A stretch of 64,000 nt of DNA from an uncultured Gammaproteobacteria bacterium (lineage in GTDB: Bacteria; Patescibacteriota; Microgenomatia; UBA12405; JAHJSD01): positions 462,158 through 526,157 of the forward strand of contig CAYRYE010000001.1 in NCBI GenBank assembly GCA_964428655.1, read 5' to 3'. Positions 1,206 through 61,511 of the stretch are shown piece after piece (within the stretch, counting starts at the first letter, position 1; each line of letters starts with the position of its first letter). The position numbers and the translations under genes were made by a program. The notes under the pieces are model-generated. The model ran no database searches. It was given only the letters and a program-made list of their open reading frames with translations, and was not told the origin of the DNA.

Positions 1206-2342
1206 ATGGTTAAATTACAAAAAATAGTGATTGATGCCAGAATGTATGGCCTTGAACACGCTGGGATTGGACGCTATGTCATGAGTCTTATTTCAAATCT
1301 CGAACTCCCGTCTGCCTTCAAGCTTATTTTGCTAGTAAAAAAAGAAAAAATGAGTGAGATAAAAAGAGAGCTGGGTAATAAATTTGAATATATTCCTGTA
1401 AAATCACGCCATTATTCTTTTGTCGAACAGCTGGAAATTCCATTAATCCTTAATAAAATCAAGCCTGACTTGGTTCACTTCCCTCATTTTAATTCCAGTC
1501 TTTTTTGGCAAGGCGATTTCGTAGTTACCATTCATGATTTGATTAAGCATTATTTTACCGGCAAAGAAACTACCACCAGATCAACACCAACTTACTGGTT
1601 AAAGCATCTAGCTTATCGATTTCAAATAAATTATTCTGTCAAAAAATCTAAATTGATTATTGTTCCCAGTCAATATTGGAAAAAAGAGTTGGTAAAAAAG
1701 TTTAAAGTTCCTCAAAAAAAAATAATTGTTACTCACGAGGCAGTTGACCCGGATTTTTTAAAATTGGTTGGGAAAAAAAGAAAGAGTGTTCTAAAAAAAT
1801 TCTCTCTCAAAACCCCCTTTTTTATTTACACAGGTAATGTCTATCCCCATAAAAATATAGAAAGATTGTTAAGGGCGATCAGAAAGATTAATAATGTTAA
1901 TTTAGTTATTGTTTGCAGCAGAGGCGTATTTACTAAAAGATTGAGTTTTTTGGTGAATAAACTAAGATTAAAAAAAAGAGTCGACTTTTTAGGATTTGTC
2001 AATGATCGAGATCTAATTTCTCTTTATCAAAAGGCTGAAGCATTGGTTCAACCTTCACTAATGGAAGGTTTTGGTTTAACCGGATTAGAGGCGATGGCCG
2101 CTGGCTGTTCGGTGGTTTCCTCAAATGCTTCCTGTTTGCCAGAAATCTATGGAGAAGCGGCTTTATATTTTGATCCTTTAAATATTACCGACATTGCTGA
2201 AAAGTTAGAATTAATATTAAAAAATAAAAAATTAAGAGAAGAACTAGCCAAGAAAGGAAAAAAACAAGTAGAAAAATATTCTTGGATGGAAACAGCAAGA
2301 ACAACTGTTGAGGGATATAAAAAAATCCTAACCAATAATTAA
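1206..2342 (+). CDS. Glycosyltransferase family 1 (GT4)
   Basis: The C-terminal motif EGFGLTGLEAMAAGCSVVSS is typical of GT4 retaining glycosyltransferases. Confidence 0.75.
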   Translation: MVKLQKIVIDARMYGLEHAGIGRYVMSLISNLELPSAFKLILLVKKEKMSEIKRELGNKFEYIPVKSRHYSFVEQLEIPLILNKIKPDLVHFPHFNSSLFWQGDFVVTIHDLIKHYFTGKETTTRSTPTYWLKHLAYRFQINYSVKKSKLIIVPSQYWKKELVKKFKVPQKKIIVTHEAVDPDFLKLVGKKRKSVLKKFSLKTPFFIYTGNVYPHKNIERLLRAIRKINNVNLVIVCSRGVFTKRLSFLVNKLRLKKRVDFLGFVNDRDLISLYQKAEALVQPSLMEGFGLTGLEAMAAGCSVVSSNASCLPEIYGEAALYFDPLNITDIAEKLELILKNKKLREELAKKGKKQVEKYSWMETARTTVEGYKKILTNN

Positions 2343-2344
2343 TA

Positions 2345-3427
2345 ATGAAAGTTGCTATTGCTTATGACTGGGTCAATCAAATTGGGGGAGCGGAAAGAGT
2401 CTTGCAAACTCTTCATCAAATCTGGCCTAAGGCGCCCTTGTTTACCAGTGTTTATGATTCTAAAAAGGCTGCTTGGGCTAAAGAGTTTCCTTTAGTGAAA
2501 ACTAGTTTTTTACAAAGTATTCCCGGAACTAAGAAATATTATCGTTTTTTTGCTCCTTTAATTCCAATCGGCTTTGAACAATTTAATTTTGATGATTTTG
2601 ATTTAGTTATTTCTGTTACTTCGGGTCCCGCTAAGGCAATTGTTACCAAACCACAAACTTGCCATATTTGCTATTGTTTAACACCACCAAGATATTTTTG
2701 GGAAAGGAGATTTTTAGACAAAAAATGGCTCTTTCCTCTTTTAGCGCCATTGCGGAAGCAAGACTATTTCTTCTCCAAAAGACCGGATTATTTTCTAGCC
2801 ACCTCTGAAAATGTCAGTAAAAAGATTGAAAAATTTTATGGTATTAAGTCAGAAGTAATCTACCCGGGAGCGGATTTGACTAAATTTAAACCCCGCAAAG
2901 ATAAAGTAAATAAAAAAGAAAGGCCATTTTTCTTAGTGGTTTCCCGACTGGTCGAATATAAAAAAACAGATCTGGTGATAAAAGCGTTCAACCAATTAGG
3001 TTGGCGCTTAAAAATTATTGGCTCAGGCAGACAGTTTAATTATTTAAAAGAAATTGCCAACGAAAACATTACTTTTCTTAACAAAATTGATGATAAACAA
3101 TTGATTGAGGAATATCAAAACTGCCAAGCCTTGATTGCCGCCCAAGAAGAAGATTTTGGTCTGACGTCAATTGAGGTTCAGGCTTGCGGCAAACCAGTGA
3201 TTGGCCTGGCCAAAGGGGGAATTAAAGAAACAGTTGTTCCTGGTCTTACCGGAGAGCTTTTTTATCCCCAAACAAAAAAAGCCCTAATCAAAGTTCTTAG
3301 AAAATTTGATTTGGACAAATATAAAGAGAAAGATTGCTTAAAAAACGCTCAAGGGTTTAGTTTAGAAAAATTTATGTTATCATTTAAAAACAAAATAGAG
3401 GCGAGGTATAAGGAGTATCGGGAATGA
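2345..3427 (+). CDS. Glycosyltransferase family 1 (GT4-like)
   Basis: The EEDFGLTSIEVQACGKPVIG motif resembles the GT4 C-terminal E-x7-E region. It overlaps the downstream gene by 4 nt. Confidence 0.65.
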   Translation: MKVAIAYDWVNQIGGAERVLQTLHQIWPKAPLFTSVYDSKKAAWAKEFPLVKTSFLQSIPGTKKYYRFFAPLIPIGFEQFNFDDFDLVISVTSGPAKAIVTKPQTCHICYCLTPPRYFWERRFLDKKWLFPLLAPLRKQDYFFSKRPDYFLATSENVSKKIEKFYGIKSEVIYPGADLTKFKPRKDKVNKKERPFFLVVSRLVEYKKTDLVIKAFNQLGWRLKIIGSGRQFNYLKEIANENITFLNKIDDKQLIEEYQNCQALIAAQEEDFGLTSIEVQACGKPVIGLAKGGIKETVVPGLTGELFYPQTKKALIKVLRKFDLDKYKEKDCLKNAQGFSLEKFMLSFKNKIEARYKEYRE

Positions 3428-4074
3428 AAGAAGAACTGTATTTTTTCACGAAAAGAATAATGGATGTTTCTTTAGCTGTTCTTTTAGGAATTATTTTTTC
3501 TCCAGTAATATTGATCATAATGCTTTTAATTAAATTAGAGTCAAGGGGCCCAATTTTGGCAAAAGTTGGCAAAAGAATAAGTCAGAATGGTGAGTTGTTT
3601 CGTCTTTATAAGTTTAGATCAATGATTGCTAATGCTCATCGACTTCTAAAAACTGATCCTAAATTTAGAAAAGCCTATGAGGAGCAGCAAGAAAAAGGTA
3701 ATTATAAAATTAAAAAAGATCCCCGAATAACCAAGATTGGTAAATTTATTCGCAAACATTCAATAGATGAAATTCCCCAATTGTTTAATGTAATTAAAGG
3801 AGATATGAGTATTATTGGTCCTAGAGCTTATTATCCAGAAGAACTAGAAAAACAGCAGCAAAAATACCCTCACACTAAAAAATTAATTAAAGAAGCCTTG
3901 ACTATCAAGCCGGGTATTACTGGTCTATGGCAGGTTTCGGGCAGAAGTGAGTTAAACTTTGACAAGCGTATTGCTCTTGATGCATACTATGCAGGGCAAA
4001 AATCGCTCTGGTTGGATATTTTGATTCTTTTAAAAACGCCGTGGGTGATGATTACCGGAAAGGGAGCAGCATGA
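3424..4074 (+). CDS. Small monotopic phosphoglycosyl (sugar) transferase, PglC/WbaP C-terminal-domain type
   Basis: One N-terminal transmembrane segment, then the conserved IDEIPQLFNVIKGDMSIIGPRA motif of bacterial sugar transferases. Confidence 0.8.
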   Translation: MKEELYFFTKRIMDVSLAVLLGIIFSPVILIIMLLIKLESRGPILAKVGKRISQNGELFRLYKFRSMIANAHRLLKTDPKFRKAYEEQQEKGNYKIKKDPRITKIGKFIRKHSIDEIPQLFNVIKGDMSIIGPRAYYPEELEKQQQKYPHTKKLIKEALTIKPGITGLWQVSGRSELNFDKRIALDAYYAGQKSLWLDILILLKTPWVMITGKGAA

Positions 4075-6113
4075 ACCTAGAAATACCAAATCTCAAATCT
4101 CGTGTCGCCGGAACCGTGCTCCGCCAAAACGTGGCTGCGCAGCGGCGAGTAGCCTCTGACGACGCACAGCAAATCCCAAAGAACAATGACCTTAGTTCAA
4201 GTAAACTAGAGAGGTTAAAAAGAAAGTTTGTAAAGATTTCCAAGAACAGGCGCCTGGTAGGCTTTTTAATTTTTTTAGTTTTATTAATAATTGTTGGCTT
4301 AATAGGAATAGTAGTTCCCGGAACAGCCTTAGTCAATCAAGTAAAAAACTTAGAAACTAAGGCCCAAAAAATTAAGTCAACAATGGCCACCAAAGACCTA
4401 AAATTAATCAAAAGAGAAATGGAAGAAGTTGGCCAGGAAGTTGAGAAACTGGAAAAGGGCTACAAAAGATTATTTCTTCTAAAAATAATTCCTGGCTTGC
4501 GCGGTTATTATCTGGATGGGCAAGGGGTAATTAAGGCGGCAAAAGCAGGTGTTAAAACAGGAAAAATTATTATTGAAGCAGTAGAACCCTATCAAGACTT
4601 TTTAGGCCTGATAGGGGATGAGGAAGAAGGCGCTTTGGCTGGTGGGGAAAAAACAACCGAAGAAAGAATCAGCTTTTTGGTAGAAAGTATCGAAGGCCTA
4701 AGGCCAAGACTGAATGAGATAGAAAAGGAGTTAAAAATAATTGAGGAATCTGTTAGTAGAATAGATCCCCAAAAATACCCCGAGAGAATTAAAGGCAGGG
4801 AAATCAGGAATAAAGTTTCCCAAGGTAAAAGACTAATTGGCCAGATCAGACAGGCTGTTAGCGAAGGCCGGCCGCTGCTTGAGCGGGCTGATTGGCTTTT
4901 GGGTAAAGATGATCCTCGAAAATACCTCTTCTTATTCCAAAATGACGCTGAACTGAGACCCACTGGTGGTTTTTGGACCGCCTATGGAATCATTGAAGTT
5001 GACAACGGCAAGTTTTCCCCATCCGTGTCTGAAGACATTTATGCCCTGGACGCTCGCTTTATGAGTAATATTTTGGCGCCAAGGCCAATTGAGAAATATC
5101 ACAAGAATGTCCATTACTGGTATCTCAGAGACATGAATCTGTCACCTGATTTCAAAACGTCGGTGGAAGAATTTATTAAACACTACAAAGAGATCAAGGG
5201 CGCAAAAGAGTTTGAAGGAGTGATAGCGGTTGACACTCAAGTTCTGGTCGATATTCTGGAGGTTCTGGGGAGAATTGGTGTTCCAGGTTGGGGAAACTTC
5301 ACTCCCGAGCCCGACGATCGCTGCTGGGGTTGTCCTCAGGTTGTTTACCAGTTAGAGTTATTGGCTGATAAGCCGCTGTCAACCATAAAAGCAGATCGAA
5401 AAGGCTTCCTAGCGCCCTTAATGCATTCAATTATTGCCAACGCCTTGGGTTCTCCTAAGGAAAAAGTATCTGATTTAGCTAATGCTGTTTTGAAAAGTTT
5501 TAAAGAAAAAAATATTTTAGTTTACTTTCCGGATGAAGACTTGCAAAAAGCGGTTGAGGGGCTGAACGTTGCTGGCGCTGTCGAGTCGGCAGGAGAAGAT
5601 TACTTCCACCTTAATGATGCCAACTTTGCCGGGGCTAAGTCTAATTTATTCATCAGCCAGGAAGTTAAGCAGGAATACAAAGTTGAAAAAGACGGTCGAG
5701 TAATAAAAAAAGCTACTGTTGTTTATAAAAATACCGCCCCTCCTTCTAATTGTAATTTAGAGCGCGGTGATCTTTGTTTGAATGGTCTTTACAGAAACTG
5801 GTTTAGGTTTTATGTTCCCCAAGGGAGTAAATTAATAAAAATGACTGGTTCAGAAGTTGAGCCGGAAGTTTATGATGAATTGGGCAAAACTGTTCTTGAG
5901 GGTTTTTACGGGAATAAATATCCCCTTCATCCTCAAGGAAGCGCTCGGGTAACAGTTGAATATGAACTGCCTTTTAAACCAGCAAAAACAATAAAACTTC
6001 TAATTCAAAAACAGCCGGGAACAAAAAGTCCCAAATACGAAATCCTGGTTAATGGCAGCAAACAGCGAGAATTTAATCTGTCAGCTGATAGGAATTTGGA
6101 TTTGTCTCTTTAA
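4071..6113 (+). CDS. DUF4012-domain membrane-anchored protein (polysaccharide-locus associated)
   Basis: N-terminal transmembrane segment and coiled-coil region, then the block FQNDAELRPTGGFWTAYGIIEVDNGKF typical of DUF4012. The start is taken at the ATG overlapping the upstream stop; the ORF track begins at 4041. Confidence 0.55.
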   Translation: MNLEIPNLKSRVAGTVLRQNVAAQRRVASDDAQQIPKNNDLSSSKLERLKRKFVKISKNRRLVGFLIFLVLLIIVGLIGIVVPGTALVNQVKNLETKAQKIKSTMATKDLKLIKREMEEVGQEVEKLEKGYKRLFLLKIIPGLRGYYLDGQGVIKAAKAGVKTGKIIIEAVEPYQDFLGLIGDEEEGALAGGEKTTEERISFLVESIEGLRPRLNEIEKELKIIEESVSRIDPQKYPERIKGREIRNKVSQGKRLIGQIRQAVSEGRPLLERADWLLGKDDPRKYLFLFQNDAELRPTGGFWTAYGIIEVDNGKFSPSVSEDIYALDARFMSNILAPRPIEKYHKNVHYWYLRDMNLSPDFKTSVEEFIKHYKEIKGAKEFEGVIAVDTQVLVDILEVLGRIGVPGWGNFTPEPDDRCWGCPQVVYQLELLADKPLSTIKADRKGFLAPLMHSIIANALGSPKEKVSDLANAVLKSFKEKNILVYFPDEDLQKAVEGLNVAGAVESAGEDYFHLNDANFAGAKSNLFISQEVKQEYKVEKDGRVIKKATVVYKNTAPPSNCNLERGDLCLNGLYRNWFRFYVPQGSKLIKMTGSEVEPEVYDELGKTVLEGFYGNKYPLHPQGSARVTVEYELPFKPAKTIKLLIQKQPGTKSPKYEILVNGSKQREFNLSADRNLDLSL

Positions 6114-20848: not shown

Positions 20849-23356
20849 TTATCTTCTTCCCACAAGCCCTTCCCAGGCAAAGAGGCGGGCGAGATATCCA
20901 TGCGGTTCAACAAAGGAGTAATTACTTTTTCCCCATTGGATCTTGACTTTGTCAATTAAATCTTTGCTGTAATTAACAGAAAGACCTTTTATTGTCGGTA
21001 CTTCTCTTTTTCTCCTTTTTGCTAATCTAATTAATCTCATTGCCAATGAATAATAACTTCTAGCCTGCCTATATTCTTGATAAGCACTATTCCGGGAAAT
21101 CATATTCTGTTCTTTAAGAACAACTTCCCATGCCAAGGTGATAATCTCCATTATCCTCTTAGCTTTATTGTACGGATTAATTTGCTGGCCATTAAAAGCT
21201 TTTCGGAAGCGAGCCAAATAATAAATTGACTTCTTCAAATCACCAACAGCATCACTCCAATTTTCCTCACTTATATTCTCAATAGCCTGGTTGAGATGAG
21301 TTAATGATTTTGCTAAGTAGCTATCACTGCTTTGTTGATAGAGGTTTTCAAGTAGTTCTTTGGCCTGATTTAAATGAATTGATCCACCTGGATCTACCAA
21401 TGGATCAGCTAGCGGATCGTCAAAATTAATATTAAATTCATAATGTTTCACCTCTTGATCTTGAATTTCATCTTCGTAAACTTGCCAAAAGTTTCCAGAA
21501 GGAGTAATTTGACCAAGATACAAATGATAAATGTCATCGTCAACCCCATTAATTTCTGCTTGATAAGTGCCTGTTTCAGGATCGGGAATAACTATAAATT
21601 GCAAATTTTCCGTTTCAGGGTTTGAGTCATTAACTTTAAGAGTTGCCGGTGAAGCAAGATAAAAAACTAGTAAATTATCTTCTGAATAGGCATTCGGGCC
21701 ACTGATCTCAATATTGCTTTTACCCAAAAGTTCTAATATTTCTTTGACAGCATTAGAGTCGCTGATTATCTGATGATGATTAAGAGAATACTCTAGATCG
21801 GAATTATAACCATTTTCTAAAAAAGCGCTTTTTTTCAAAACAGTACCATCACCAAAACCATTAATTGTCTTTATTGGCTGCCCATCAGGCCAAAGATCCA
21901 GTACTTCATGTATCAGCGATCGGTTTTTAACAACTAGCCATTCAGGGGTGGTTAAGCCTGTATTGCCAAGAATAAAATGCGAAAAAGAAAGAATATCAGC
22001 CTCTTGATTCAAGCGGGGGAGAAATTGATTCGAATAGCTAATATCTCCAACGGAAATATTGCGGCCATACTTTTCGATAAAGTCAAATGTGGGAATAATA
22101 TCATTTAAAACTGGAGTAATCTCTTTAATCAGGGCCGCATTTGTCTCAAAACCATCTTTGTGGATTTGCAAAAGTAATTGCATTGCTAACCAGCCAAGAT
22201 TAACCTTTTCGCCTACTTTTCCACCAACAATAGCGCTGTAGGCTTGAACGGCGCCATAATGGGGCGAACCGACGGCAATCAACTTATTAGTTTTTTTCTC
22301 CAGTTCATCATCATGATCTTGCGTCCATGTTCGCACAACTAGGCCGCCAAGGCTGTGGCCAACAAGATCTATTTTTTCCGCTGATTCCAGTTCGGGGGTA
22401 GAGTTAATGAACTGATTTAGGTCAACAGCTATCTCGGGAATTGGCTTACGCCAGTCATAATTCCAAACAAAGAGGTTTTCGTTCCTGGCATAACCATTGT
22501 TTCCCACTGTCTCGGCTAAACGATCATAAATATTGACAAAAGGTGTCATTTGCCATTGGTCAGCGCCAACACTCTCGCCATACACCATCGCTTCCGTATT
22601 CCAACTCCCTCCCAGCCCAGGAATGATAATTAGGGGGGGAGTTACTTCTACGCCATCAGCCATTATTCTTATGTGATCAACACTTAAACTTGACCACATA
22701 GCCGGCTCATACATTTTGAATGGGTTACCAACAGTAATTGTTGTAGGCATCCTATCGCTATTTTCTCTTTCAAAAATAGGGTTTTGATCTACAAAAACCG
22801 AATAGAGCGATCCACTTCTTATTATTTTCCAAATGTGATCATTTGTGTCATTATGGCTAATTACAAAAAATTCAGCATCGTTTGTATTTTGATTTATATT
22901 GTGATGATATTTTATTTTCAAACCTTTTCCGCTACTTGAGTCTTGCCATATATGCATATGGACCATCTTGGCGTTATTTTTTTTTGCATAATCAGACGAC
23001 GCTGGATAAGGCGGAATTAAATTTCCCAGTGTTATACCATTTCCCCAGTTATCAACTTTGTCATATTTAAATCTAATTTCGATCTCAAAATCACCCTCAA
23101 AATTTTCTGGGATTATATTGCTTGAAGAGAGAAATGGGAATTGGCTTGTTTCAGAACTAAGGTTCAACCAGCCATCAAGGACCGATACATTTTGACCGTA
23201 TACTTTCCACTTGTCTCTATCTAACTCATCGAAATTTTCCTCAAACAAATAAGAACTGGCAAAACTAGTTTCATTAAAGACAAAACATGTAACAACAACA
23301 AAAATGAGTTGCAGGATGATAAAATAAATCCCAGAAAGCATTTTTCTTATCAACAT
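20849..23356 (-). CDS. Secreted multidomain alpha/beta-hydrolase. N-terminal signal/anchor, ConA-like lectin/glucanase-type region, central LCAT-family-like lipase/acyltransferase domain, C-terminal helical region
   Basis: An N-terminal hydrophobic signal, then PLIIIPGLGGSW, WNYDWRKP and the nucleophile elbow LVGHSLGG about 40 residues after DWR. That arrangement matches lecithin:cholesterol acyltransferase (PF02450)-type hydrolases. The protein is 835 aa. Confidence 0.55.
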   Translation of the reverse strand: MLIRKMLSGIYFIILQLIFVVVTCFVFNETSFASSYLFEENFDELDRDKWKVYGQNVSVLDGWLNLSSETSQFPFLSSSNIIPENFEGDFEIEIRFKYDKVDNWGNGITLGNLIPPYPASSDYAKKNNAKMVHMHIWQDSSSGKGLKIKYHHNINQNTNDAEFFVISHNDTNDHIWKIIRSGSLYSVFVDQNPIFERENSDRMPTTITVGNPFKMYEPAMWSSLSVDHIRIMADGVEVTPPLIIIPGLGGSWNTEAMVYGESVGADQWQMTPFVNIYDRLAETVGNNGYARNENLFVWNYDWRKPIPEIAVDLNQFINSTPELESAEKIDLVGHSLGGLVVRTWTQDHDDELEKKTNKLIAVGSPHYGAVQAYSAIVGGKVGEKVNLGWLAMQLLLQIHKDGFETNAALIKEITPVLNDIIPTFDFIEKYGRNISVGDISYSNQFLPRLNQEADILSFSHFILGNTGLTTPEWLVVKNRSLIHEVLDLWPDGQPIKTINGFGDGTVLKKSAFLENGYNSDLEYSLNHHQIISDSNAVKEILELLGKSNIEISGPNAYSEDNLLVFYLASPATLKVNDSNPETENLQFIVIPDPETGTYQAEINGVDDDIYHLYLGQITPSGNFWQVYEDEIQDQEVKHYEFNINFDDPLADPLVDPGGSIHLNQAKELLENLYQQSSDSYLAKSLTHLNQAIENISEENWSDAVGDLKKSIYYLARFRKAFNGQQINPYNKAKRIMEIITLAWEVVLKEQNMISRNSAYQEYRQARSYYSLAMRLIRLAKRRKREVPTIKGLSVNYSKDLIDKVKIQWGKSNYSFVEPHGYLARLFAWEGLVGRR

Positions 23357-27116: not shown

Positions 27117-28928
27117 ATGCTATCATTGCAATTAGTGAGAACTTCAAAGAATATGGCCAATGAGAAATTAGTTGGACTTCTGAAGGCAGTATCTGCCGCC
27201 TATCAAATAAAAGATGAAAAGGCTAACAGATTTAGAATTATTGCTTATGATCGGGCAGCGGCAGCAATAGAACATCTTACTTCTGAAATTAAAGATCTTT
27301 GGGACGACAATAAACTCAACACTATTCCCAGCGTTGGTAGTGGTATCGCGCAGCATCTAGACGAGCTGTTTAGAACTGGCAAAGTAAAACATTTTAATCA
27401 AGTGCTTTCCGCTCTCCCGCCAGCAATGTTTGAGTTTTTAAATATAAGAGGAATTGGGGCCAAAACAGCTTATAAGCTCTGCCGAAAAATAGGAATTATT
27501 AGTGTTAAAAATGCTCTCGGGAGATTAAAAAAAGCTGCCGAGCAAAATAAGATCGGAAAACTGCCCGGTTTTGGTGAAAACTCTGAAGCGAGAATTTTAA
27601 AATCGATTGAGGAGTATGAAAAAACTGGCGAAAAAAAGAAAAGAATGCTCCTTCCTTGCGCTCATTCCCTAGCTAAAGAAATCTTAGAATACCTCCTTAA
27701 TAGTCCAAATGCTAAGAAGGCTGATCTCTTAGGCAGCCTGCGTCGTCAGACAGCAACTGTTGGTGATGTTGATATCGCCGTCAACAGCAGTAAGCCTCGA
27801 GAAATAATAGACCTTTTTATTGAGTTTCCCAAGGTTAAGAGAGTTTTGGAATCGGGTGAAAAAGGGGCTACGGTATTATTAAATTCCGGGCACGAAATAA
27901 ATCTTAGGGTCCAATCATCAGCCTCTTATGGGGCCTTATTACAGCATTACACTGGTTCAAAACACCACAACATTCATTTAAGAAAGCTCGCTAATAAAAA
28001 TGGTTGCAGCCTTTCCGAGTATGGAATCAGAGAAATCAAAGCTAAAAAATTGCATAAATTTAAAGATGAAGCTAGTTTTTACCAATTTCTGGGTCTTGAT
28101 TGGATACCGCCCGAATTAAGAGAAGATAATGGCGAAATAGAAGCGGCTCAAAAACAACAACTACCTAATTTAATAAGTCTTGGCGATATAAAAGGCGACC
28201 TTCATATTCATTCAGATTTTAATACCGAACCAAGCCATGATCTCGGTAAAGATTCAATGAATGACATTGTGAAAAAGTGCGTGAAATTAGGATATCGATT
28301 TTTAGCCTTTGCTGAACATAATCCCAGTTTTAGCCGGCACTCTGAAAAGGAAACCATATCCATTTTGAAAAGAAAAAGAGATTATGTCAGGCAAAGGGCA
28401 ATTTATTGGAAAAAAGAATTCAACATTAATGTCTTAAATAGCCTGGAAATAAATATTAAACCGGACGGCAGTTTGGCAATGCCCGAAAAAGGTTTTAAAT
28501 ATCTGGATTTTGCCATTGTCTCCATTCACACTGTTTTTAACCTCTCCAGGGAAAAAATGACCCGGAGAATTATTAAAGCATTGAATCATCCCAAGGTAAA
28601 AATCTTGGCCCACCCTACAGGAAGAAAAATTGGCCAAAGAGAAAGTTACGAGGTCGATTGGGATAAATTATTTGATTTTTGTAAAAAAAGGAATAAGATT
28701 TTAGAAATTAACAGCTGTCCCAACCGTCTGGATTTACCTGATGTTTTAATCAAAGAAGCTGTGAGAAATGGCGTAAAAGTTACAGTTAACAGCGACGCTC
28801 ACGCTTTTGACCAATTGGATTTTATGAAATATGGAGTTTCTAATGCTAGGAGAGGCTGGGCAGAGGCAAAAGATATAATCAACACTTTTTCATTCAAAAA
28901 GTTGTCCAAAATTCTAGGAGTTGATTAG
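27117..28928 (+). CDS. DNA polymerase X family protein (Pol-beta-like nucleotidyltransferase core plus C-terminal PHP phosphoesterase domain)
   Basis: The N-terminal helix-hairpin-helix/8-kDa-like region (KANRFRIIAYDRAA), palm region (GDVDIAV) and C-terminal PHP-type His motifs (HIHSDF, AEHNP, NSDAH) fit the PolX layout. Confidence 0.7.
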   Translation: MLSLQLVRTSKNMANEKLVGLLKAVSAAYQIKDEKANRFRIIAYDRAAAAIEHLTSEIKDLWDDNKLNTIPSVGSGIAQHLDELFRTGKVKHFNQVLSALPPAMFEFLNIRGIGAKTAYKLCRKIGIISVKNALGRLKKAAEQNKIGKLPGFGENSEARILKSIEEYEKTGEKKKRMLLPCAHSLAKEILEYLLNSPNAKKADLLGSLRRQTATVGDVDIAVNSSKPREIIDLFIEFPKVKRVLESGEKGATVLLNSGHEINLRVQSSASYGALLQHYTGSKHHNIHLRKLANKNGCSLSEYGIREIKAKKLHKFKDEASFYQFLGLDWIPPELREDNGEIEAAQKQQLPNLISLGDIKGDLHIHSDFNTEPSHDLGKDSMNDIVKKCVKLGYRFLAFAEHNPSFSRHSEKETISILKRKRDYVRQRAIYWKKEFNINVLNSLEINIKPDGSLAMPEKGFKYLDFAIVSIHTVFNLSREKMTRRIIKALNHPKVKILAHPTGRKIGQRESYEVDWDKLFDFCKKRNKILEINSCPNRLDLPDVLIKEAVRNGVKVTVNSDAHAFDQLDFMKYGVSNARRGWAEAKDIINTFSFKKLSKILGVD

Positions 28929-53391: not shown

Positions 53392-55152
53392 ATGCGGCGC
53401 CTAACGTATATTTTAACAAATTTTCTTTCTCTAATTTTAATTATCTTTTCCATATCGGTTTCGAACGCCGAGGCTAGTTTGGAATTTGAAACAAAACAGG
53501 AAATTGTCTATGAAATCGGCCCCCGAGGTGATGCCAAGGTCAGTCAAGAAATATCCCTGATTAACAACTTCTCCAATATCTATCCCCAAGAATACCATCT
53601 TCAAATAAATGATATTAAGATAAAAAATATTACTGCCACTGATTTTGTTGGCAGTATTGTTAAAGAAATAATCGAGAGTCTAGATAAAACTACTATAAAA
53701 TTAAGGTTTAATCAGGAAAAAATAGGAAAGGGGAAAGTGACTGATTTCAAAATCACTTATTACCTGCCTCAGTTTGCCGTCAGAAGAGGACAGATTTGGG
53801 AAATGGTTATTCCCAACCTAGACAATATTGAGGAAATTGATAGTCTAATTTTAAAAATAAAAGCGCCCACTTCTTTTAGTAATTTAGCCTATTCCTCAAT
53901 CTCACCAAGTAGCCAGGAAGAAATAGAAAAATATCAATTAATTTCATATCAAAAATCCAAATTAGGTAAAAAACCTTTAGTGCTGGCTTTTGGTGACTTC
54001 CAAATCTTTGATTTCTCTTTAAATTTTTTCCTTAACAATCAAGAAATAAAAACAACCAAAGTGGAAGTGCCCATTCCCCCAGATACGGCCTATCAATCGG
54101 TTTTCCTAACTTCAATTGACCCCCCGCCCAGCAGAATTAAGCTTGATAATGATTACAACTGGCTCGCCGAATATCTTCTTTCTCCTGGTGAAACGAAAAC
54201 TATCACTGTTCGCGGCCAGGCCAAAATCTTCTCCCAAGCCAACAATCAAACGTTCACAAATGCCAGTCAATTTCAAAATACTGGTCTCTACTTAAAGGAA
54301 GATCTCTATTGGGAAACAAATAGTTCGCTAATCAAGAATTTGGCCCGTCAATATAACACCCCTCTTAAAATCTATAACTTCGTTACCAATGTTCTGGAAT
54401 ATGATTATGAAAATTTAAATAAACCTGAAAGAGTTGGCGCCCTAAAAGCATACCAGCAGAAAAAAGGTGTTTGTACGGAATTCAGTGATCTCTTTGTGGC
54501 CCTGGCTCGATCAGCCGGCATCCCCGCCAGAGAACTGGAAGGATTCGCCTTTACCAACAATCAAAAACTTACCCTGCTGGCTGCCAGTAGCGATGTCCTT
54601 CATTCCTGGGTGGAATACTGGGATTCAGGAAAAAAACTTTGGATTCCTGCTGATCCAACCTGGTCTAAAACTACCAATGGCATTGACTTTATTGATAACT
54701 TTGATTTGGGTCACTTTGTTTTTGTGATTCATGGTCAAAGCAGTACCAAACCAGCTCCTCCGGGTTTTTATAAAACCAACTATCAACAAAAAAATGTCGA
54801 TGTTCAATTTGCTAATAAATTACTACCCTTGCCAAAAGGTGAATTAAGCGTCAAGCTGGAAAACCTTCAAGATAATCTAAAACTTATTATCAAAAATGAA
54901 AGTCTGGCTCCAGCCTATAACGTTCAAGTTGCTTTAATGGGTTGGCGGAAAAAGAAATTAGAAAAAAGAGAAATAGTTCTCATGCCCCCATTAGGAGAAG
55001 AGGGGATTGAAATAAGCCGCCCCAACATTATCACCAGGATTTTTACCAAGCCTGTTTATCACCTCCAAATCAACGATTCCCTTTTTGAGGTTGATTATTC
55101 CAAGTCTAAATTGAACTTTTTATCGTTTTTTGCTAATCTACTCAAGAGGTGA
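53392..55152 (+). CDS. Secreted transglutaminase-like (Cys-His-Asp) domain protein
   Basis: An N-terminal signal, the transglutaminase-core cysteine in KKGVCTEFSDLFVALARSAGIPAR, and downstream His/Asp (LHSWVEYWD...ADPTW). Confidence 0.6.
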   Translation: MRRLTYILTNFLSLILIIFSISVSNAEASLEFETKQEIVYEIGPRGDAKVSQEISLINNFSNIYPQEYHLQINDIKIKNITATDFVGSIVKEIIESLDKTTIKLRFNQEKIGKGKVTDFKITYYLPQFAVRRGQIWEMVIPNLDNIEEIDSLILKIKAPTSFSNLAYSSISPSSQEEIEKYQLISYQKSKLGKKPLVLAFGDFQIFDFSLNFFLNNQEIKTTKVEVPIPPDTAYQSVFLTSIDPPPSRIKLDNDYNWLAEYLLSPGETKTITVRGQAKIFSQANNQTFTNASQFQNTGLYLKEDLYWETNSSLIKNLARQYNTPLKIYNFVTNVLEYDYENLNKPERVGALKAYQQKKGVCTEFSDLFVALARSAGIPARELEGFAFTNNQKLTLLAASSDVLHSWVEYWDSGKKLWIPADPTWSKTTNGIDFIDNFDLGHFVFVIHGQSSTKPAPPGFYKTNYQQKNVDVQFANKLLPLPKGELSVKLENLQDNLKLIIKNESLAPAYNVQVALMGWRKKKLEKREIVLMPPLGEEGIEISRPNIITRIFTKPVYHLQINDSLFEVDYSKSKLNFLSFFANLLKR

Positions 55153-57179: not shown

Positions 57180-57264
57180 GCCAGAGTGCTGGAATTGGCA
57201 GACAGGCACGCCTCAGAAGTGTGTGCCCTTTATGGGTGTGAGGGTTCGACTCCCTCCTCTGGCA
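57180..57264 (+). tRNA. tRNA-Leu (anticodon CAG), type II with a long variable arm
   Basis: GCCAGAG...GCTGGAATTGGCAGAC...anticodon loop CTCAGAA...variable arm...GAGGGTTCGACTCCCTC...CTCTGGC-A. Confidence 0.85.
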
Positions 57265-57569
57265 CAAAAGGTAAATCGCCAGTTCAAAAGCCAGAGAAAA
57301 AAATTATTTAATGAAAGAGGGTGAAGAAGGTGGTGCGAGAGCAATCTGTAGTCCTAGGGGTTAGAGAACTAAAACTCCTGACTGGAGAAAAACGTAAACT
57401 TGAAGAGCATAAAAGATTAGCTCATAGGGGAAAAGTTTCTCAGCGTTGCCGTGAATGTCAAACTCGCCAAGCAAGAATTAGAACAAGCGAGGGAAGTATA
57501 GAGAGGCTGCGAGCCTAACGGCTAAAAATAGTCGATTTAAGCGTAAAGAGAGCACCCTAGAGTTCTAAA

Positions 57570-57642
57570 GCCGAGGTAGCCAAGGTGGTTACGGCGCGAG
57601 TCTGAAAAACTTGAGATGACGGTTCAACTCCGTCCCTCGGCA
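57570..57642 (+). tRNA. tRNA-Phe (anticodon GAA)
   Basis: A 73-nt cloverleaf with acceptor GCCGAGG/CCTCGGC, anticodon arm CGAGT-CTGAAAA-ACTTG and T-arm GACGG-TTCAACT-CCGTC. Confidence 0.8.
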
Positions 57643-57661
57643 CAATTTCCCTAAACTATAG

Positions 57662-57732
57662 GCGGGATTAGTTGAGTGGTTCAATTCCACCCTTCCAAGG
57701 TGGCGACGCGGGTTCGATTCCCGCATCCCGCT
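57662..57732 (+). tRNA. tRNA-Gly (anticodon TCC)
   Basis: Acceptor GCGGGAT/ATCCCGC, anticodon arm CCACC-CTTCCAA-GGTGG, T-arm GCGGGTTCGATTCCCGC. Confidence 0.8.
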
Positions 57733-57736
57733 CCGT

Positions 57737-57812
57737 GGTGAGCGTAGCTCAATGGTAGAGCGCCTGCCTGTGAAGCAGGTGGTTGAGGGTTCGATTCCCT
57801 TCGCTCACCCCA
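57737..57812 (+). tRNA. tRNA-His (anticodon GTG) with an extra 5' G(-1) and an encoded CCA
   Basis: G-GTGAGCG...GCTCAATGGTAGAGC...anticodon loop CTGTGAA...GAGGGTTCGATTCCCTT...CGCTCAC-C-CCA. Confidence 0.85.
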
Positions 57813-57825
57813 GGCGATCGTCATT

Positions 57826-57899
57826 GCGCGTGTAGCTCAGTTGGTCAGAGCATTGCGTTTACATCGCAGAGGTCCCTGGTTCGAGTCCAGGCACGCGCA
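57826..57899 (+). tRNA. tRNA-Val (anticodon TAC)
   Basis: GCGCGTG-TA-GCTCAGTTGGTCAGAGC...anticodon loop TTTACAT...CCTGGTTCGAGTCCAGG...CACGCGC-A. Confidence 0.85.
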
Positions 57900-57923
57900 C
57901 AAAAAGCCGAGGTATTTATAATA

Positions 57924-58006
57924 GCCGAGGTGCTGGAATTGGCAGACAGGCAGCGTTGAGGACGCTGTGTTCGCAAGAGCGTGGGGGTTCAAATCCCCCC
58001 CTCGGC
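57924..58006 (+). tRNA. tRNA-Leu (anticodon GAG), type II
   Basis: GCCGAGG...GCTGGAATTGGCAGAC...anticodon arm CAGCG-TTGAGGA-CGCTG...long variable arm...GGGGGTTCAAATCCCCC...CCTCGGC-A. Confidence 0.85.
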
Positions 58007-58010
58007 ACTA

Positions 58011-58084
58011 ACGGGGATTGGCGCAGTTGGCTAGCGCGCACGCTTTGGGAGCGTGAGGTCGCCGGTTCGAATCCGGCATCCCCG
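58011..58084 (+). tRNA. tRNA-Pro (anticodon TGG)
   Basis: CGGGGAT...GCGCAGTTGGCTAGCGC...anticodon arm CACGC-TTTGGGA-GCGTG...GCCGGTTCGAATCCGGC...ATCCCCG-A. Confidence 0.85.
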
Positions 58085-58095
58085 ACAAAGAAAGA

Positions 58096-58164
58096 TCGGG
58101 GGTCGTCTAAGGGTAGGACGGCAGTCTTTGGAACTGCCAATCGTGGTTCGAATCCACGCCCCCG
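58096..58164 (+). tRNA. tRNA-Gln (anticodon TTG)
   Basis: CGGGGGT...anticodon arm GCAGT-CTTTGGA-ACTGC...CGTGGTTCGAATCCACG...CCCCCG-A. The exact ends are approximate. Confidence 0.8.
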
Positions 58165-58221
58165 AACAAAATTGCGATTCCTAGAACATTTTTGATAAAA
58201 TATCTTAAACTAAGATAACTA

Positions 58222-58563
58222 ATGAAAAGAGTTTCGAATAAAGTTGTTAGGTTGGCCAAATGGATAGCAGGAAGTTGGTGGGGAGTTGTTCTTCATACTG
58301 CCTGGTTCACTGCTTGGTTAATCTATGATTTTAACATTAACATCTTAACACTAGCAGTCTCTCTGGAGGCAATTTTCATTGGCATTTTTCTCTTGATGGC
58401 CTCTGACCGAGCCGAAACAACCAGAGACAAAAGAGAGGCAGCGGCTCAAAAACGAGCCACTGATATTGTTGAAAATATTTTTGATCTAGAAACAAAAATC
58501 GAGAAACAGCAGCAGCAAATTTTAAAAATACTTATTGACAAAAAAATAAAGAGGGAAAATTAG
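58222..58563 (+). CDS. DUF1003-like small membrane protein
   Basis: Two transmembrane helices (GSWWGVVLHTAWFTAWLIYDF, LAVSLEAIFIGIFLLMASDRAE) and a C-terminal charged helix, as in DUF1003-family proteins. Confidence 0.4.
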   Translation: MKRVSNKVVRLAKWIAGSWWGVVLHTAWFTAWLIYDFNINILTLAVSLEAIFIGIFLLMASDRAETTRDKREAAAQKRATDIVENIFDLETKIEKQQQQILKILIDKKIKREN

Positions 58564-58647
58564 CCGCGGTGCTGGAATTGGCAGACAGGCTGGACTTAAA
58601 ATCCTGTGCCCCTTTGGGGCGTGAGGGTTCGACTCCCTCCCGCGGCA
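58563..58647 (+). tRNA. tRNA-Leu (anticodon TAA), type II
   Basis: GCCGCGG...GCTGGAATTGGCAGAC...anticodon loop CTTAAAA with one mismatch in the anticodon stem...GAGGGTTCGACTCCCTC...CCGCGGC-A. It has the same backbone as the CAG and TAG leucine tRNAs. Confidence 0.8.
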
Positions 58648-58673
58648 CCGAAGTTACTTGTTAAAACAGGAAA

Positions 58674-58997
58674 ATGGTTCAAGAATTTACTGATCAAAAT
58701 TTTGAAGAACAGGTTCTAAAAGCTAATAAGCCTGTTCTGGTTGATTTCTGGGCAGTTTGGTGTGGTCCCTGCCAAATGATGACTCCTGTCATCGAAGAAT
58801 TATCTGACGAAATGGATGGCAAGGCTATCGTGGGAAAACTAAATGTGGATAGTAATCCAATTACCAGCCAAAAATATGAAATTATGAGTATCCCTAGTTT
58901 ACTCATTTTCCTCAAGGGGAAAGTGGTCGAGCAAATCGTTGGTCTTCAGCCAAAAGAAGTGATAAAAGAAAAATTGGATAAAGTTATTACTTCTTGA
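58674..58997 (+). CDS. trxA: Thioredoxin
   Basis: The WAVWCGPCQMMTP active site (CGPC) and a length of 107 aa. Confidence 0.9.
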   Translation: MVQEFTDQNFEEQVLKANKPVLVDFWAVWCGPCQMMTPVIEELSDEMDGKAIVGKLNVDSNPITSQKYEIMSIPSLLIFLKGKVVEQIVGLQPKEVIKEKLDKVITS

Positions 58998-60063
58998 CGA
59001 AAAAAAGAATCATTTCATCCTCAAGGAGATAAGAAAGGGGAACGTTTTGGCCAGGAAACTTTGTTCCCGGTCCCCAAGCCAAAACTTGGTTAACCCGCTC
59101 AACTAAATCAGTGGAAACGGCCTTAATTGCCTCAAAGATGGTCATACCTTTTCTCAATATTAAGGGGGCTTTAAAATCAGGCTGGCCCTTCTTGTTTCCC
59201 TTAAGATAAATTCTTATTAAGCCTAGCTTCTGCCAAATAGTCTCTTTTAAATTATCCAGCCCTATTTTTTCTTTGGCGCTAATTAAAACTCCCTTTTTAA
59301 TTTTAAGGTCTTTTTTTACATCGATCTTATTAACTACTTCAATTGCCGATAAGTAGATTCTGTTATCGGAAAAAGCATCAATTAGTTGATCTAGAGAAGT
59401 AATTGCTTTTTCAAAACTAATTTCACTATTTTTCAATCCCATTTCTTGAGCAACTTTAATTATTGTTTCCTTTGGAAAACAGACAAAAGGGTCAATTACC
59501 TTTATCCCTCCACGATTGAGTTTTTTAACTTTTACTCTTGGCGGCTGAAGATTGAGTCTAATCCCTGCCTGATAGAGTTCATCCTTAATTTTTTTAAGCC
59601 AGCTAATTCGATTAACATCAATCATTAAAATCACTAAATCCGCCCCTCTAACTACCGAAAGAATCTTCTTTCCCTCTCCTTTGCCAATGGCAGCACCCTT
59701 TACCAGACCGGGAAGATCAAAAATTTGAATCTTAGCTCCCTTGTATTCCATCATGCCTGGAATCACCTTTAAGGTAGTGAAATCATAACTTCCCGCCTTT
59801 GAAAAAGCCTTGGTTATATTATTCAGAAGAGTTGATTTGCCTACCGAAGGAGGGCCAACTAAAACACAAGTAGCATCACCCTGTTTCTTGACTCCATGGC
59901 CTCCTCCTCCAGATTTTGTCAACCCTTCTTCTAGCTCACGTTTAAACTTGGCAATTTTGGCTTTCAGCAAGCCAATATGGTGTTCTGTGCCTTTGTGATA
60001 CGGGGTAGCCCTGATTTCCTCCTCTAATTTACTGATCTTTTCGCTAATTTCTTTTTTTGTCAT
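58987..60063 (-). CDS. DRG-family (developmentally regulated GTP-binding protein / Rbg1-like) Obg-class GTPase with a C-terminal TGS domain
   Basis: The N-terminus EISEKISKLEEEIRATPYHKGTEHHIGLLKAKIAKFKREL. The G domain GDATCVLVGPPSVGKSTLLNNIT...YDFTTLKVIPGMMEYKGAKIQIFDLPGLVKGAAIGKGEGKK...ADLVILMIDV. Together these closely parallel eukaryotic/archaeal DRG1 sequences. Confidence 0.75.
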   Translation of the reverse strand: MTKKEISEKISKLEEEIRATPYHKGTEHHIGLLKAKIAKFKRELEEGLTKSGGGGHGVKKQGDATCVLVGPPSVGKSTLLNNITKAFSKAGSYDFTTLKVIPGMMEYKGAKIQIFDLPGLVKGAAIGKGEGKKILSVVRGADLVILMIDVNRISWLKKIKDELYQAGIRLNLQPPRVKVKKLNRGGIKVIDPFVCFPKETIIKVAQEMGLKNSEISFEKAITSLDQLIDAFSDNRIYLSAIEVVNKIDVKKDLKIKKGVLISAKEKIGLDNLKETIWQKLGLIRIYLKGNKKGQPDFKAPLILRKGMTIFEAIKAVSTDLVERVNQVLAWGPGTKFPGQNVPLSYLLEDEMILFFVKK

Positions 60064-60086: not shown

Positions 60087-61511
60087 ATGAAAATTATTAT
60101 AACAGTCATGATCATTTTCGCTCTCTTTTTTAATCAAGTCAAAACTGGATTGGCTATTTCAAACTTAAATTGGGCCAAGAACAAATTTGGTATCCACGTA
60201 AACTCAGACATTAATGATCTTCAATTGGCAACCGAACTGCTTAATACTAACGGCGGTGACTGGGGATGGGTCAACACCGTAATTAGAGAAGATGAGTTAA
60301 ATCAACAACAATGGCAAAATTTCCTCGACCAGTGCCGCCGCCTGCATTTAATACCTATTTTCAGGCTGGCAACAAATATTGAAAATGGCAATTGGCAAAA
60401 ACCAAAAAAAGAAAATATTAAGAGAATGGCTGATTTTCTCAACTCTTTAAATTGGCCAATTAAAGATAGGTTTATCATTGTTTTCAACGAACCAAATAGA
60501 TTCGATGAGTGGGGTGGAAAGGTAAATGCTGAAGGTTATTTTGATATTTTGGATTTTACCGCTGACTATTTCCATAAGATCAATCCTGATTTTTACATCC
60601 TTTCTGCAGGATTAGATTTAGCTGCCCCCCAGAAACCGCCAAAATTTAGCTCGGCCGAAAACTTCTATCGCCAGGGTTATAACCATAAGCCAGAAATCTT
60701 TGAAAAGATAGACGGTCTCGCCTCGCACTCATATCCAAATTACGGTTTCATTGGCCTACCCAGCGATGAAGGAAGAACAAGCATTAAGGGGTACATTTGG
60801 GAATTAGACTACCTCCATCGTTTAGGCATTAAAAATAAGCTGCCTGTTTTTATTACCGAAACAGGCTGGCCCCATCAAGAAGGAATCAATATACAGAAAA
60901 ACTTCTACCCCGCTAAAAAAGTAGTTCAGCTCTTGGAACAATCGTTCAAATTTTGGCTTGCTGACTCAAGAGTAATTGCTGTCACTCCCTTTATTTTAAA
61001 TTACCCCCAGGGGCCCTTTGATCACTTCTCTTGGATCAATCAAGATCAGCAACCCTATCCTCAATTCGATTTGCTAAAGTCATTAAACAAACCGCTTCAC
61101 AAACCACCCCAAAAAGAGAAAATTGTCTTCAAGAAAATATTCCTGCCATTCTTACTAAAAACCAGCCAAAACTACAAGGGAGAAATCGTCTTGAGAAACG
61201 AGGGGGAAAGTATTTGGGGGGAAGAAAGGCAATTTTGCCTTAGACCCTCAAAAGAAAATTCCAACTATATCAAAACTTCCTCTCTCTGTCTTGAGAAAAA
61301 CAAATTAGTCGAACCAGGCAAAGAAGGAGTTTTGGAGTTTGAAATTACTCCCTCAAAAGGAGAAAGCACCAGCCAATTCAGCTGGGAAAAACTGCCTGAT
61401 TTTGAGATTAGGAAATTACCCCAACTTTTTCCCGGGAAAACAATTTATCGCCGCCGCACGGGGGGTCTCTCGGCCTTAATTAGTTGGCTAAGATTAAAGA
61501 TGAACATCTAA
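60087..61511 (+). CDS. Secreted GH-A clan (GH5-like TIM-barrel) glycoside hydrolase, candidate
   Basis: An N-terminal signal, then IIVFNEPN (NEP acid/base motif) and FITETGWPH (TE-G nucleophile motif), spaced as expected for clan GH-A. Confidence 0.45.
   Translation: MKIIITVMIIFALFFNQVKTGLAISNLNWAKNKFGIHVNSDINDLQLATELLNTNGGDWGWVNTVIREDELNQQQWQNFLDQCRRLHLIPIFRLATNIENGNWQKPKKENIKRMADFLNSLNWPIKDRFIIVFNEPNRFDEWGGKVNAEGYFDILDFTADYFHKINPDFYILSAGLDLAAPQKPPKFSSAENFYRQGYNHKPEIFEKIDGLASHSYPNYGFIGLPSDEGRTSIKGYIWELDYLHRLGIKNKLPVFITETGWPHQEGINIQKNFYPAKKVVQLLEQSFKFWLADSRVIAVTPFILNYPQGPFDHFSWINQDQQPYPQFDLLKSLNKPLHKPPQKEKIVFKKIFLPFLLKTSQNYKGEIVLRNEGESIWGEERQFCLRPSKENSNYIKTSSLCLEKNKLVEPGKEGVLEFEITPSKGESTSQFSWEKLPDFEIRKLPQLFPGKTIYRRRTGGLSALISWLRLKMNI

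Follow-up and report, generated by a model that had tools for sequence, protein, structure and literature searches.

A DRG-type GTPase of probable archaeal ancestry in Microgenomates-group bacteria of the candidate phyla radiation

GTPases of the DRG (Rbg) family have been described together with Nog1 as present in archaea and eukaryotes 'though not in bacteria' (PMC8629797, PMC4263083), and a 2026 phylogeny contrasts bacterial Obg with archaeal/eukaryotic Rbg (bioRxiv 10.64898/2026.05.13.724932). In yeast, Rbg1 and Rbg2 use their G, helix-turn-helix (HTH) and TGS domains to bind 80S ribosomes, translating or stalled, at the GTPase-associated centre; their function requires GTP hydrolysis, which is K+-stimulated for DRG1, and DFRP partners make them more stable and provide further contacts with the 40S subunit (PMC8629797). 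The S5D2L insert in the G domain is unique to DRGs and in yeast Rbg1 contacts the A-site tRNA (PMC8629797). Here we describe a DRG gene on the reverse strand of a 64,000-nucleotide stretch of DNA, referred to below as the window (contig CAYRYE010000001.1 of assembly GCA_964428655.1, positions 462,158 to 526,157), whose host is a bacterium of the candidate phyla radiation (CPR).

The encoded protein resembles the archaeal DRGs (aRbg; the COG1163-type 'ribosome-interacting GTPase 1' of Euryarchaeota and DPANN), which to our knowledge have not been characterised experimentally, in length (~355-370 amino acids in archaea) and in its four-domain architecture, and shares up to ~50 % identity with them, for example with those of Hydrothermarchaeota, Iainarchaeum and Archaeoglobaceae. 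Relative to the archaeal proteins the CPR proteins have no clade-specific indels, the eukaryote-specific insertions are absent, and a partner protein is probably dispensed with; the CPR proteins differ, however, in that their host is a bacterium with 70S ribosomes and a co-resident Obg, and in that a histidine is fixed at position 23, beside the invariant K24, where asparagine is usual. With Rbg1/DRG1 and Rbg2/DRG2 the protein has its four domains (HTH, G, S5D2L, TGS) and the motifs G1-G5 in common, at Foldseek identities of 38 % (Rbg1) and 33 % (Rbg2). Within the HTH domain its (N/H)K motif likewise contains the invariant lysine, which we take to be the one hydroxylated by JMJD7 in the DRGs of higher eukaryotes. 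Unlike the eukaryotic pair, the CPR DRG is single-copy, with no DRG1/DRG2 division, lacks the two small eukaryote-specific insertions and would have to work on a bacterial ribosome, and whereas Rbg1 and Rbg2 have the DFRP partners Tma46 and Gir2, none was detected for the CPR DRG in the window or its conserved neighbourhood. Bacterial Obg (ObgE/CgtA) belongs to the same Obg-HflX superfamily, has a related G domain and likewise binds ribosomes, but it has none of the HTH, S5D2L and TGS domains of the CPR DRG and forms a separate clade. YchF/OLA1, an Obg-family P-loop protein too, also has a C-terminal TGS-like domain and binds ribosomes; however, the CPR DRG has the NKxD GTP specificity with an intact G4, and the sequence match between the two is confined to the P-loop region.

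Identity and domain architecture of the protein

The original prediction, made from the DNA sequence, had read this gene, in its bacterial context, as a DRG of archaeal/eukaryotic type that carries a TGS domain and is distinct from Obg, Era and YchF, and all the elements it named, namely HHIGLLKAKIAKFKREL, a Gly-rich linker (KSGGGGHG), GPPSVGKSTLL and YDFTTL...YKGAKIQIFDLPG, are found in the translation of the open reading frame (ORF). When the protein was compared by phmmer with all PDB sequences, yeast Rbg1 (4a9a/7rr5) was matched full length, over residues 7-358, with an E-value of 2e-68, which makes a chance match impossible, and yeast Rbg2 (7nrc) was matched full length with an E-value of 5e-67. 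In the same search the best Obg match had an E-value of 3e-11 and covered residues 66-175, that is, the G domain only, and the best YchF match had an E-value of 1e-6. An AlphaFold2 model built from a 66-sequence alignment (mean predicted local distance difference test (pLDDT) score 91.3, predicted template modelling score 0.87) gave the same ranking in a Foldseek search of the PDB, in which Rbg1 reached a template modelling (TM) score of 0.76-0.78 with an E-value of 1e-34 and Rbg2 a TM score of 0.74, followed after a big gap by YchF/Obg-like structures at only 0.3-0.45 (YchF 0.40-0.45). No NCBIfam equivalog passed its cut-off, and only the generic small_GTP domain model did so; the ObgE models were the top NCBIfam matches, yet they scored 48-77 bits against cut-offs of 280-406 and covered the G domain only, and the YchF equivalog TIGR00092 scored 31.7 bits against a cut-off of 279. 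A Pfam scan of the protein at E<=0.01 revealed neither the N-terminal family of Obg nor the C-terminal family of YchF.

As shown in Table 1, the DRG architecture is complete, with an N-terminal helical domain, an Obg-type G domain carrying the S5D2L insert, and a C-terminal TGS domain. The HTH domain contains the conserved motif (N/H)K(A/G)TE..H.G.LKAK.A, aligns with Rbg1/Rbg2 from residue 7 onwards and includes K24, which is invariant across the 66 family sequences, and the Gly-rich linker that follows aligns with that of Rbg1/Rbg2. In the first part of the G domain the motifs G1 (GPPSVGKS, 70-77), G2 (YDFTT, 93-97) and G3 (DLPG, 116-119) are intact, with G70, G75, K76, D116 and P118 invariant in the 66-sequence alignment; in the second part K246, D248 and S262 are invariant or nearly so. 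The Pfam family PF16897 (MMR_HSR1_Xtn), matched at residues 185-282 with 67 bits against a cut-off of 35.2, spans the DRG-specific insert together with the G4/G5 part, and in the AlphaFold2 model the S5D2L region forms a beta-alpha-beta-alpha unit that lies inside the full-length Foldseek alignment to 4a9a/7rr5. The TGS match is closer to its threshold (23.6 bits against 22.2), with a pLDDT of 96-98 over the region and a phmmer match in the PDB to the TGS domain of human DRG1 (2eki, E 1.3e-5). Thus, every structural feature of a DRG that was tested is present, while the host lies outside the range of archaea and eukaryotes that reviews give for the family, and we conclude that the window protein is almost certainly a DRG, as predicted; sequence, predicted structure and the tree described below agree on this point. 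Since its relatives are already annotated as Obg-family or ribosome-interacting GTPases, it does not represent an unknown protein family: protein and mechanism are of a known kind, and what is new is to meet a DRG in a domain of life where none was expected.

Distribution, selection and possible role on the ribosome

A word-indexed search returned homologues in thousands, the closest 120 being 46-66 % identical to the window DRG, and the named ones among these 120 carry the labels 'Patescibacteria group', 'Microgenomates group', Shapirobacteria or Woesebacteria; their annotations read 'GTPase', '50S ribosome-binding GTPase', 'OBG GTPase family GTP-binding protein' or, at JGI, 'ribosome-interacting GTPase 1'. 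A GTDB scan with one genome per species yielded at least 80 DRG loci. About 74 of them are from CPR genomes labelled Shapiro-, Woese- or Gottesmanbacteria or Microgenomates; some of these loci lie on 0.2-0.8 Mb contigs, and one belongs to a closed genome of 802 kb. About five more bear archaeal labels (Iainarchaeum, Archaeoglobaceae, Hydrothermarchaeales, Nitrosopumilus and Nanobdellati) and are at 44-49 % identity as close to the window protein as many CPR orthologues. Over the Microgenomates/OP11 radiation (Shapiro-, Woese-, Gottesman- and Pacebacteria labels) identity to the window DRG is 41-66 % overall. The nearest named relative of a divergent CPR sub-clade of four loci (L049, L062, L074 and L080) is 'Candidatus Pacebacteria', which we take to be another lineage of the OP11 radiation. 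Four carrier genomes are assigned to GTDB c__Microgenomatia (o__GWA2-44-7) and are 96-99 % complete with <=1.7 % contamination (genome table of PMC12641178). An exhaustive search of 1.84 billion representatives at 50 % identity gave only 304 clusters at E<=1e-30, a number that we take to be roughly the size of the DRG family over all domains of life.

The bacterial carriers among the matches listed are therefore all Microgenomates-group CPR bacteria, in which the gene is common and syntenic. The original prediction had called DRG sporadic in bacteria, which is imprecise on two counts, since reviews give it as absent and since it is common within this one group. DRG goes unmentioned in the text and supplements of a 2025 survey of ribosome-biogenesis factors in CPR bacteria (PMC12641178), and short literature searches found no report of a DRG in CPR or other bacteria. 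A stable archaeal-type DRG beside Obg in a large bacterial radiation thus corrects the stated range of the family. The public labels of many third-party metagenome-assembled genomes (MAGs), among them L076 and L004-L010, conflict with their content, reading 'uncultured Gammaproteobacteria', 'uncultured Methanomicrobia archaeon' or 'uncultured Candidatus Saccharibacteria'. The DRGs of these genomes nest inside Microgenomates clades, several with CPR synteny, and L076, under its Methanomicrobia label, behaves as CPR; the labels look like placeholders.

In two of the CPR loci, L040 and L061, a phmmer search with E. coli ObgE against all locus ORFs identified a true Obg on the same contig as the DRG and ~4-5 kb away from it (E 1e-73 and 1e-58, respectively), which makes the DRG an addition to the bacterial GTPase set and rules it out as a replacement for Obg. 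This agrees with the reported retention of obgE in Microgenomatia (PMC12641178). These CPR Obg proteins are short, 314 amino acids in L040 (14832-15776, +) and 300 in L061 (4981-5883, -) against 390 in E. coli. No YchF was found in ~1.2 Mb of DRG flanks, a sample too small for a conclusion.

The CPR orthologues are all full length with intact motifs, and nineteen positions, including K24, T26, G62, the P-loop, FTT, Q113, D116, P118, G129, G131 and K246, are conserved in CPR, archaea and eukaryotes. Among 50 CPR orthologue pairs of 72-97 % amino-acid identity the ratio of non-synonymous to synonymous substitution rates (dN/dS, Nei-Gojobori) is 0.03-0.08, and synteny around the gene is conserved within sub-lineages. 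In base composition the window gene matches its host, with a GC content of 0.382 and a third-position GC content (GC3) of 0.348 against 0.385±0.025 and 0.352±0.040 for the window genes, and its codon usage is mid-range as well. The low dN/dS, intact motifs, synteny and amelioration together indicate a long-resident, vertically inherited and functional gene.

As to what this function may be, bacterial ObgE is reported to be able to replace Rbg1/Drg1 in yeast and human cells (preprint, bioRxiv 10.64898/2026.05.13.724932), which argues that Obg-family GTPases can act on ribosomes across domains. From homology to the yeast proteins we lean towards relief of paused translation on the 70S ribosome. 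In such a mechanism the CPR DRG, with GTP bound, would use its HTH, G and TGS domains to dock on a translating 70S ribosome at the GTPase-associated centre, and its S5D2L insert would reach the A-site tRNA; the paused ribosome would thereby be stabilised in a state competent for peptide-bond formation, until intrinsic, probably K+-stimulated, GTP hydrolysis would free the protein. It would probably act without a DFRP-type partner, as is assumed for archaeal DRGs.

Alternatively, the CPR DRG could be a ribosome-assembly GTPase that compensates for lost Der, Era and RbfA and does not act on paused translating ribosomes. Microgenomatia keep obgE and are without der, era (mostly) and rbfA, as are WWE3 and Dojkabacteria (PMC12641178); the restriction of the bacterial carriers, among the matches listed, to the Microgenomates radiation would fit such a compensation, and strong purifying selection in very small genomes speaks for an important role. 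However, no DRG has a known assembly role, and Rbg1 and Rbg2 sit on translating 80S ribosomes (PMC8629797). Moreover, the der-less Paceibacteria, WWE3 and Dojkabacteria are not among the named DRG carriers, so that loss and gain do not obviously coincide, and the tRNA-contacting S5D2L domain is fully conserved in the CPR proteins. A role in assembly is thus possible and less well supported than pause relief, and we regard it as unlikely.

A broader and more speculative proposal, which we put forward tentatively, is that Microgenomates-group CPR bacteria have a hybrid translation apparatus, in which the archaeal-derived DRG works on the 70S ribosome without a DFRP, beside Obg, and is kept because it does what Obg cannot, either by protecting or restarting paused ribosomes or by filling the gap left by Der, Era and RbfA. 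If true, this would be the first natural DRG working in a bacterial cell, and a natural experiment against a simple redundancy of Obg and DRG, the reading suggested by the 2026 complementation preprint. The CPR carriers provide a natural case of Obg and DRG coexisting under selection, and a small, partner-free DRG on a bacterial-type ribosome could be a tractable system for the role of DRGs at the GTPase-associated centre and for the question of how far Obg and DRG are really interchangeable.

Origin of the bacterial DRG

For the phylogeny, 176 sequences were aligned with MAFFT L-INS-i and 358 columns were kept. The set comprised the window and locus proteins, 90 full-length representatives at 50 % identity, and yeast Rbg1/Rbg2 taken from PDB alignments, with an outgroup made up of ObgE and YchF from E. 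coli and the Obg proteins of two CPR loci; the domain of unnamed representatives was assigned from tree position and a few look-ups. Neighbour-joining trees were calculated with 200 bootstraps from Kimura, gamma and Dayhoff-6 distances, for which bootstrap values are given in this order. A phylogeny against Obg and YchF had been proposed as a check in the original prediction, and here the DRGs were split off from the outgroup at 92-99 %, the window protein lying inside neither Obg nor YchF. Eukaryotes were monophyletic at 92.5, 88.5 and 47.5 %, and all 86 CPR DRGs formed one clade at 61, 53 and 41 %. This clade was nested, with weak support, among archaeal DRGs of the Euryarchaeota/DPANN type, and the window protein fell together with some of the mainstream archaeal sequences at 85-90 %; monophyly of mainstream archaea and eukaryotes without CPR was recovered in 1-2 % of the bootstraps. 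The CPR clade has as its nearest tips sequences whose name or context marks them as archaeal (Nanohaloarchaeota, Halovenus of the Halobacteria, Iainarchaeum, Nanobdellati, Thermoplasmatota and an Hjc-carrying contig). Its sister group varies from one bootstrap to another (P0137/P0146, Halobacteria with Nanohaloarchaeota, DPANN and others), and the archaeal backbone has a bootstrap support of 0-8 %, for which reason we do not name a donor lineage. The outgroup joins the tree beside a group that a homologue search identified as Thermoproteota (Bathyarchaeia, Methanomethylicia, Desulfurococcales and Sulfolobales). The Thermoproteota DRG type (P0253, P0214, P0222 and their relatives) is recognisable by a ~20-residue N-terminal extension and by HKG(T/A)E in the place of NKATE; the Nitrosopumilus protein is of the mainstream type.

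Mean identities are 47.7 % among CPR proteins, 38.1 % among archaeal proteins, 37.4 % between CPR and archaea, and 34.4 % between CPR and eukaryotes. CPR and archaeal proteins are thus as close to each other as archaeal proteins are among themselves, which is unexpected for a gene that split at the divergence of bacteria and archaea. The sole fixed CPR signature is H23, found in 86 of 86 sequences, at a position where asparagine occupies 76 % of the archaeal and 95 % of the eukaryotic sequences. We consider it very probable that DRG reached an ancestor of Microgenomates by an old transfer from archaea. One gene would have passed from a donor of the Euryarchaeota/DPANN type to an ancestor in the Microgenomates/OP11 radiation and would then have been inherited vertically, with full amelioration to host composition and under strong purifying selection alongside the bacterial Obg. 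Of the two origins offered by the original prediction, old horizontal transfer is accordingly favoured by the nesting of CPR in archaea and by the equal CPR-archaea and archaea-archaea distances; the other, an archaeal-like translation-factor complement of reduced bacteria, was not found in the literature. Short literature searches likewise found no report of an ancient archaea-to-CPR transfer of a translation-associated factor, and the DRG would add a clean, ancient case of such a transfer for a ribosome-binding factor.

The same data bear on vertical inheritance, by which DRG would have been present in the last universal common ancestor or in the last bacterial common ancestor, been kept only in CPR and been lost elsewhere in bacteria. 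The Obg superfamily is ancient, some authors argue for an early divergence of CPR (PMC12641178), and the CPR proteins group in a single clade in which H23 is fixed, all of which would suit this scenario. The root on the CPR stem that it requires, with archaea and eukaryotes monophyletic, was nevertheless obtained in only 0-1 % of the bootstraps, the CPR-archaea divergence does not exceed that among archaea, and the CPR stem branch is short (0.057). Furthermore, the named carriers among the matches listed come from one CPR subgroup, Microgenomates, so that very many independent losses would be needed, and we hold vertical inheritance to be quite improbable.

An archaeal fragment, for example of DPANN, that was mis-assembled or mis-binned into a bacterial genome has hardly any probability left. 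Such an artefact is conceivable in that CPR and DPANN share samples and have similar GC contents, and in that several public MAG labels are clearly unreliable. Against it stands the position of the gene within an unbroken bacterial stretch, the 64-kb window, where bacterial genes flank it to either side and trxA overlaps its 3' end. This window carries the bacterial division and cell wall (dcw) genes for RsmH/MraW, FtsI/PBP2, FtsW, MurG, FtsA and FtsZ, as well as RodA, and further encodes RecO, signal peptidase I, the alpha and delta subunits of DNA polymerase III, PolX, ClpB, GatA/GatB, phosphoenolpyruvate synthase, enolase and 15 tRNAs. An identical DRG protein is present in the NCBI (548-kb contig), JGI and Logan assemblies, and independent Logan assemblies of two other sequencing runs have the same flanking genes around an identical DRG. 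In addition, the composition of the gene is host-like, and dozens of CPR genomes have orthologues with lineage-specific synteny, some of them on contigs of 0.2-1.3 Mb and one in the closed 802-kb genome. Mis-assembly or mis-binning is thereby effectively refuted. A reading of the protein as a divergent Obg or YchF of bacterial type, as the Obg-like labels given to its relatives by NCBI and others and the top rank of the ObgE models in NCBIfam might suggest, has next to no probability and is excluded by Pfam and by those same NCBIfam matches, limited to the G domain and far under their cut-offs (77 against 406 bits), by the full-length match to Rbg1/Rbg2 in phmmer and Foldseek, by the tree, and by the true Obg that coexists with DRG on one contig in two genomes.

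Taken as a whole, the CPR DRG is likely to be a genuine, functional DRG (Rbg/Drg, COG1163-type) of archaeal ancestry, which may relieve pausing on the 70S ribosome, probably without a DFRP. Several points weigh against this explanation. With a CPR monophyly of 41-61 % and a weak backbone, a single transfer and its donor are not firmly established; the trees are neighbour-joining only, and rooting with the distant Obg and YchF, whose alignment is limited to the G domain, carries a risk of long-branch artefacts. A small conflict arises from the H23-K-G state, in which CPR agrees with the DRGs of Thermoproteota type and departs from the mainstream archaeal type, its closer match in other respects. 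The distribution of carriers rests on the matches listed, in which many MAG labels are placeholders, and the census of CPR classes is incomplete. Finally, the functional part is drawn from sequence, predicted structure and homology to yeast Rbg1/Rbg2, and we know of no DRG that has been studied on a bacterial ribosome.

Neighbouring genes and other features of the window

The gene is convergent with trxA and divergent from a gene for a 474-residue protein, from which it is separated by 23 bp (Table 1). The original prediction had drawn attention to the convergence with trxA, which proved incidental: when ~1,500 flanking ORFs from 81 loci were clustered, trxA was a neighbour of DRG in only 3 of the 81, and it was ruled out as a partner on this ground. 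The most conserved neighbour, found in 27 of the 81 loci including the window, is the 474-residue protein, which has no Pfam match at E<=0.001 and whose NEPN...TETGW motifs presumably relate it to glycoside hydrolases of clan GH-A. Besides this glycoside hydrolase-like protein with a hydrophobic N-terminus, the recurring neighbours are CTP synthase, which adjoins DRG in Woesebacteria-type loci, elongation factor P, a MiaB-like enzyme, Tgt and S15. The 23-bp divergent spacer contains no obvious Shine-Dalgarno sequence for either gene; in a promoter and terminator scan, promoter-like matches were not above those in shuffled sequences (6 against 4.1±1.6), and no terminator was found.

A partner of the Tma46/Gir2 type is a defining part of the DRG1/DRG2 systems of eukaryotes, though not an established one in archaea. 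It was sought in the window, which makes up 64 kb of a contig at least 548 kb long, and no DFRP_C, CCCH zinc-finger or RWD domain was present in the ORFs scanned (essentially all of >=150 amino acids and the small ORFs beside DRG). The clustering of flanking ORFs revealed no small partner gene conserved across the 81 loci. In the three archaeal loci inspected (L044, L078 and L085) a methyltransferase gene lies directly upstream of DRG; it is absent in the CPR loci, so that only the GTPase gene appears to have moved. The archaeal methyltransferase gene is of class I and co-oriented with DRG, and in L085 (6344-8173) its product has MTS/PrmA/HemK-like Pfam matches; the three loci span DPANN and Thermoproteota, and the arrangement may be a conserved operon.

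Table 1. Position of the DRG gene, its domains and other features in the window
Feature	Position	Strand	Evidence and remarks
DRG gene	58987..60063	-	ORF listing; ATG start, 358 amino acids (358 codons + TAA stop)
N-terminal HTH domain, residues 1-48	59920..60063	-	AlphaFold2 helices 3-19 and 27-48; motif TPYHKGTEHHIGLLKAKIA
Gly-rich linker, residues 49-63	59875..59919	-	Translation, contains ...KSGGGGHGVKKQGD...; low pLDDT, non-regular in model
G domain part 1, residues 64-166	59566..59874	-	Pfam MMR_HSR1 at 66-166, E 3e-21
S5D2L-like insertion between G3 and G4, ~residues 167-235 (approximate boundaries)	59359..59565	-	PF16897, model
G domain part 2, residues 236-282	59218..59358	-	G4 NKID 245-248, G5 SAK 262-264
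C-terminal TGS domain, residues 283-358	58990..59217	-	Pfam TGS PF02824 at 283-353
trxA	58674..58997	+	Pfam Thioredoxin, E 6e-31; convergent with DRG, 11-nt 3' overlap
474-residue protein	60087..61511	+	Hydrophobic N-terminus, NEPN...TETGW motifs; divergent, 23 bp from DRG start
Glycosyltransferase gene block	273-4074		
Large protein	4041-6113	+	DUF4012 only; adjoins the glycosyltransferase gene block
Large protein	20849-23356	-	LCAT/alpha-beta-hydrolase segment
PolX	27117-28928	+	Full-length DNA polymerase/3'-5' exonuclease with PHP domain; NCBIfam PRK08609, 434 bits against a cut-off of 426
Large protein	53392-55152	+	Scanned against NCBIfam only
Nine-tRNA cluster	57180-58649	+	Leu, Phe, Gly, His, Val, Leu, Pro, Gln, Leu

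The three large proteins of the window listed in Table 1 (586-835 amino acids) have no NCBIfam family. The nine-tRNA cluster lies just upstream of trxA, and a spurious ORF of the window, itself overlapping tRNA genes, falls into one cluster with ORFs from 11 related CPR loci, a hint that DRG has tRNA arrays nearby in these loci too.

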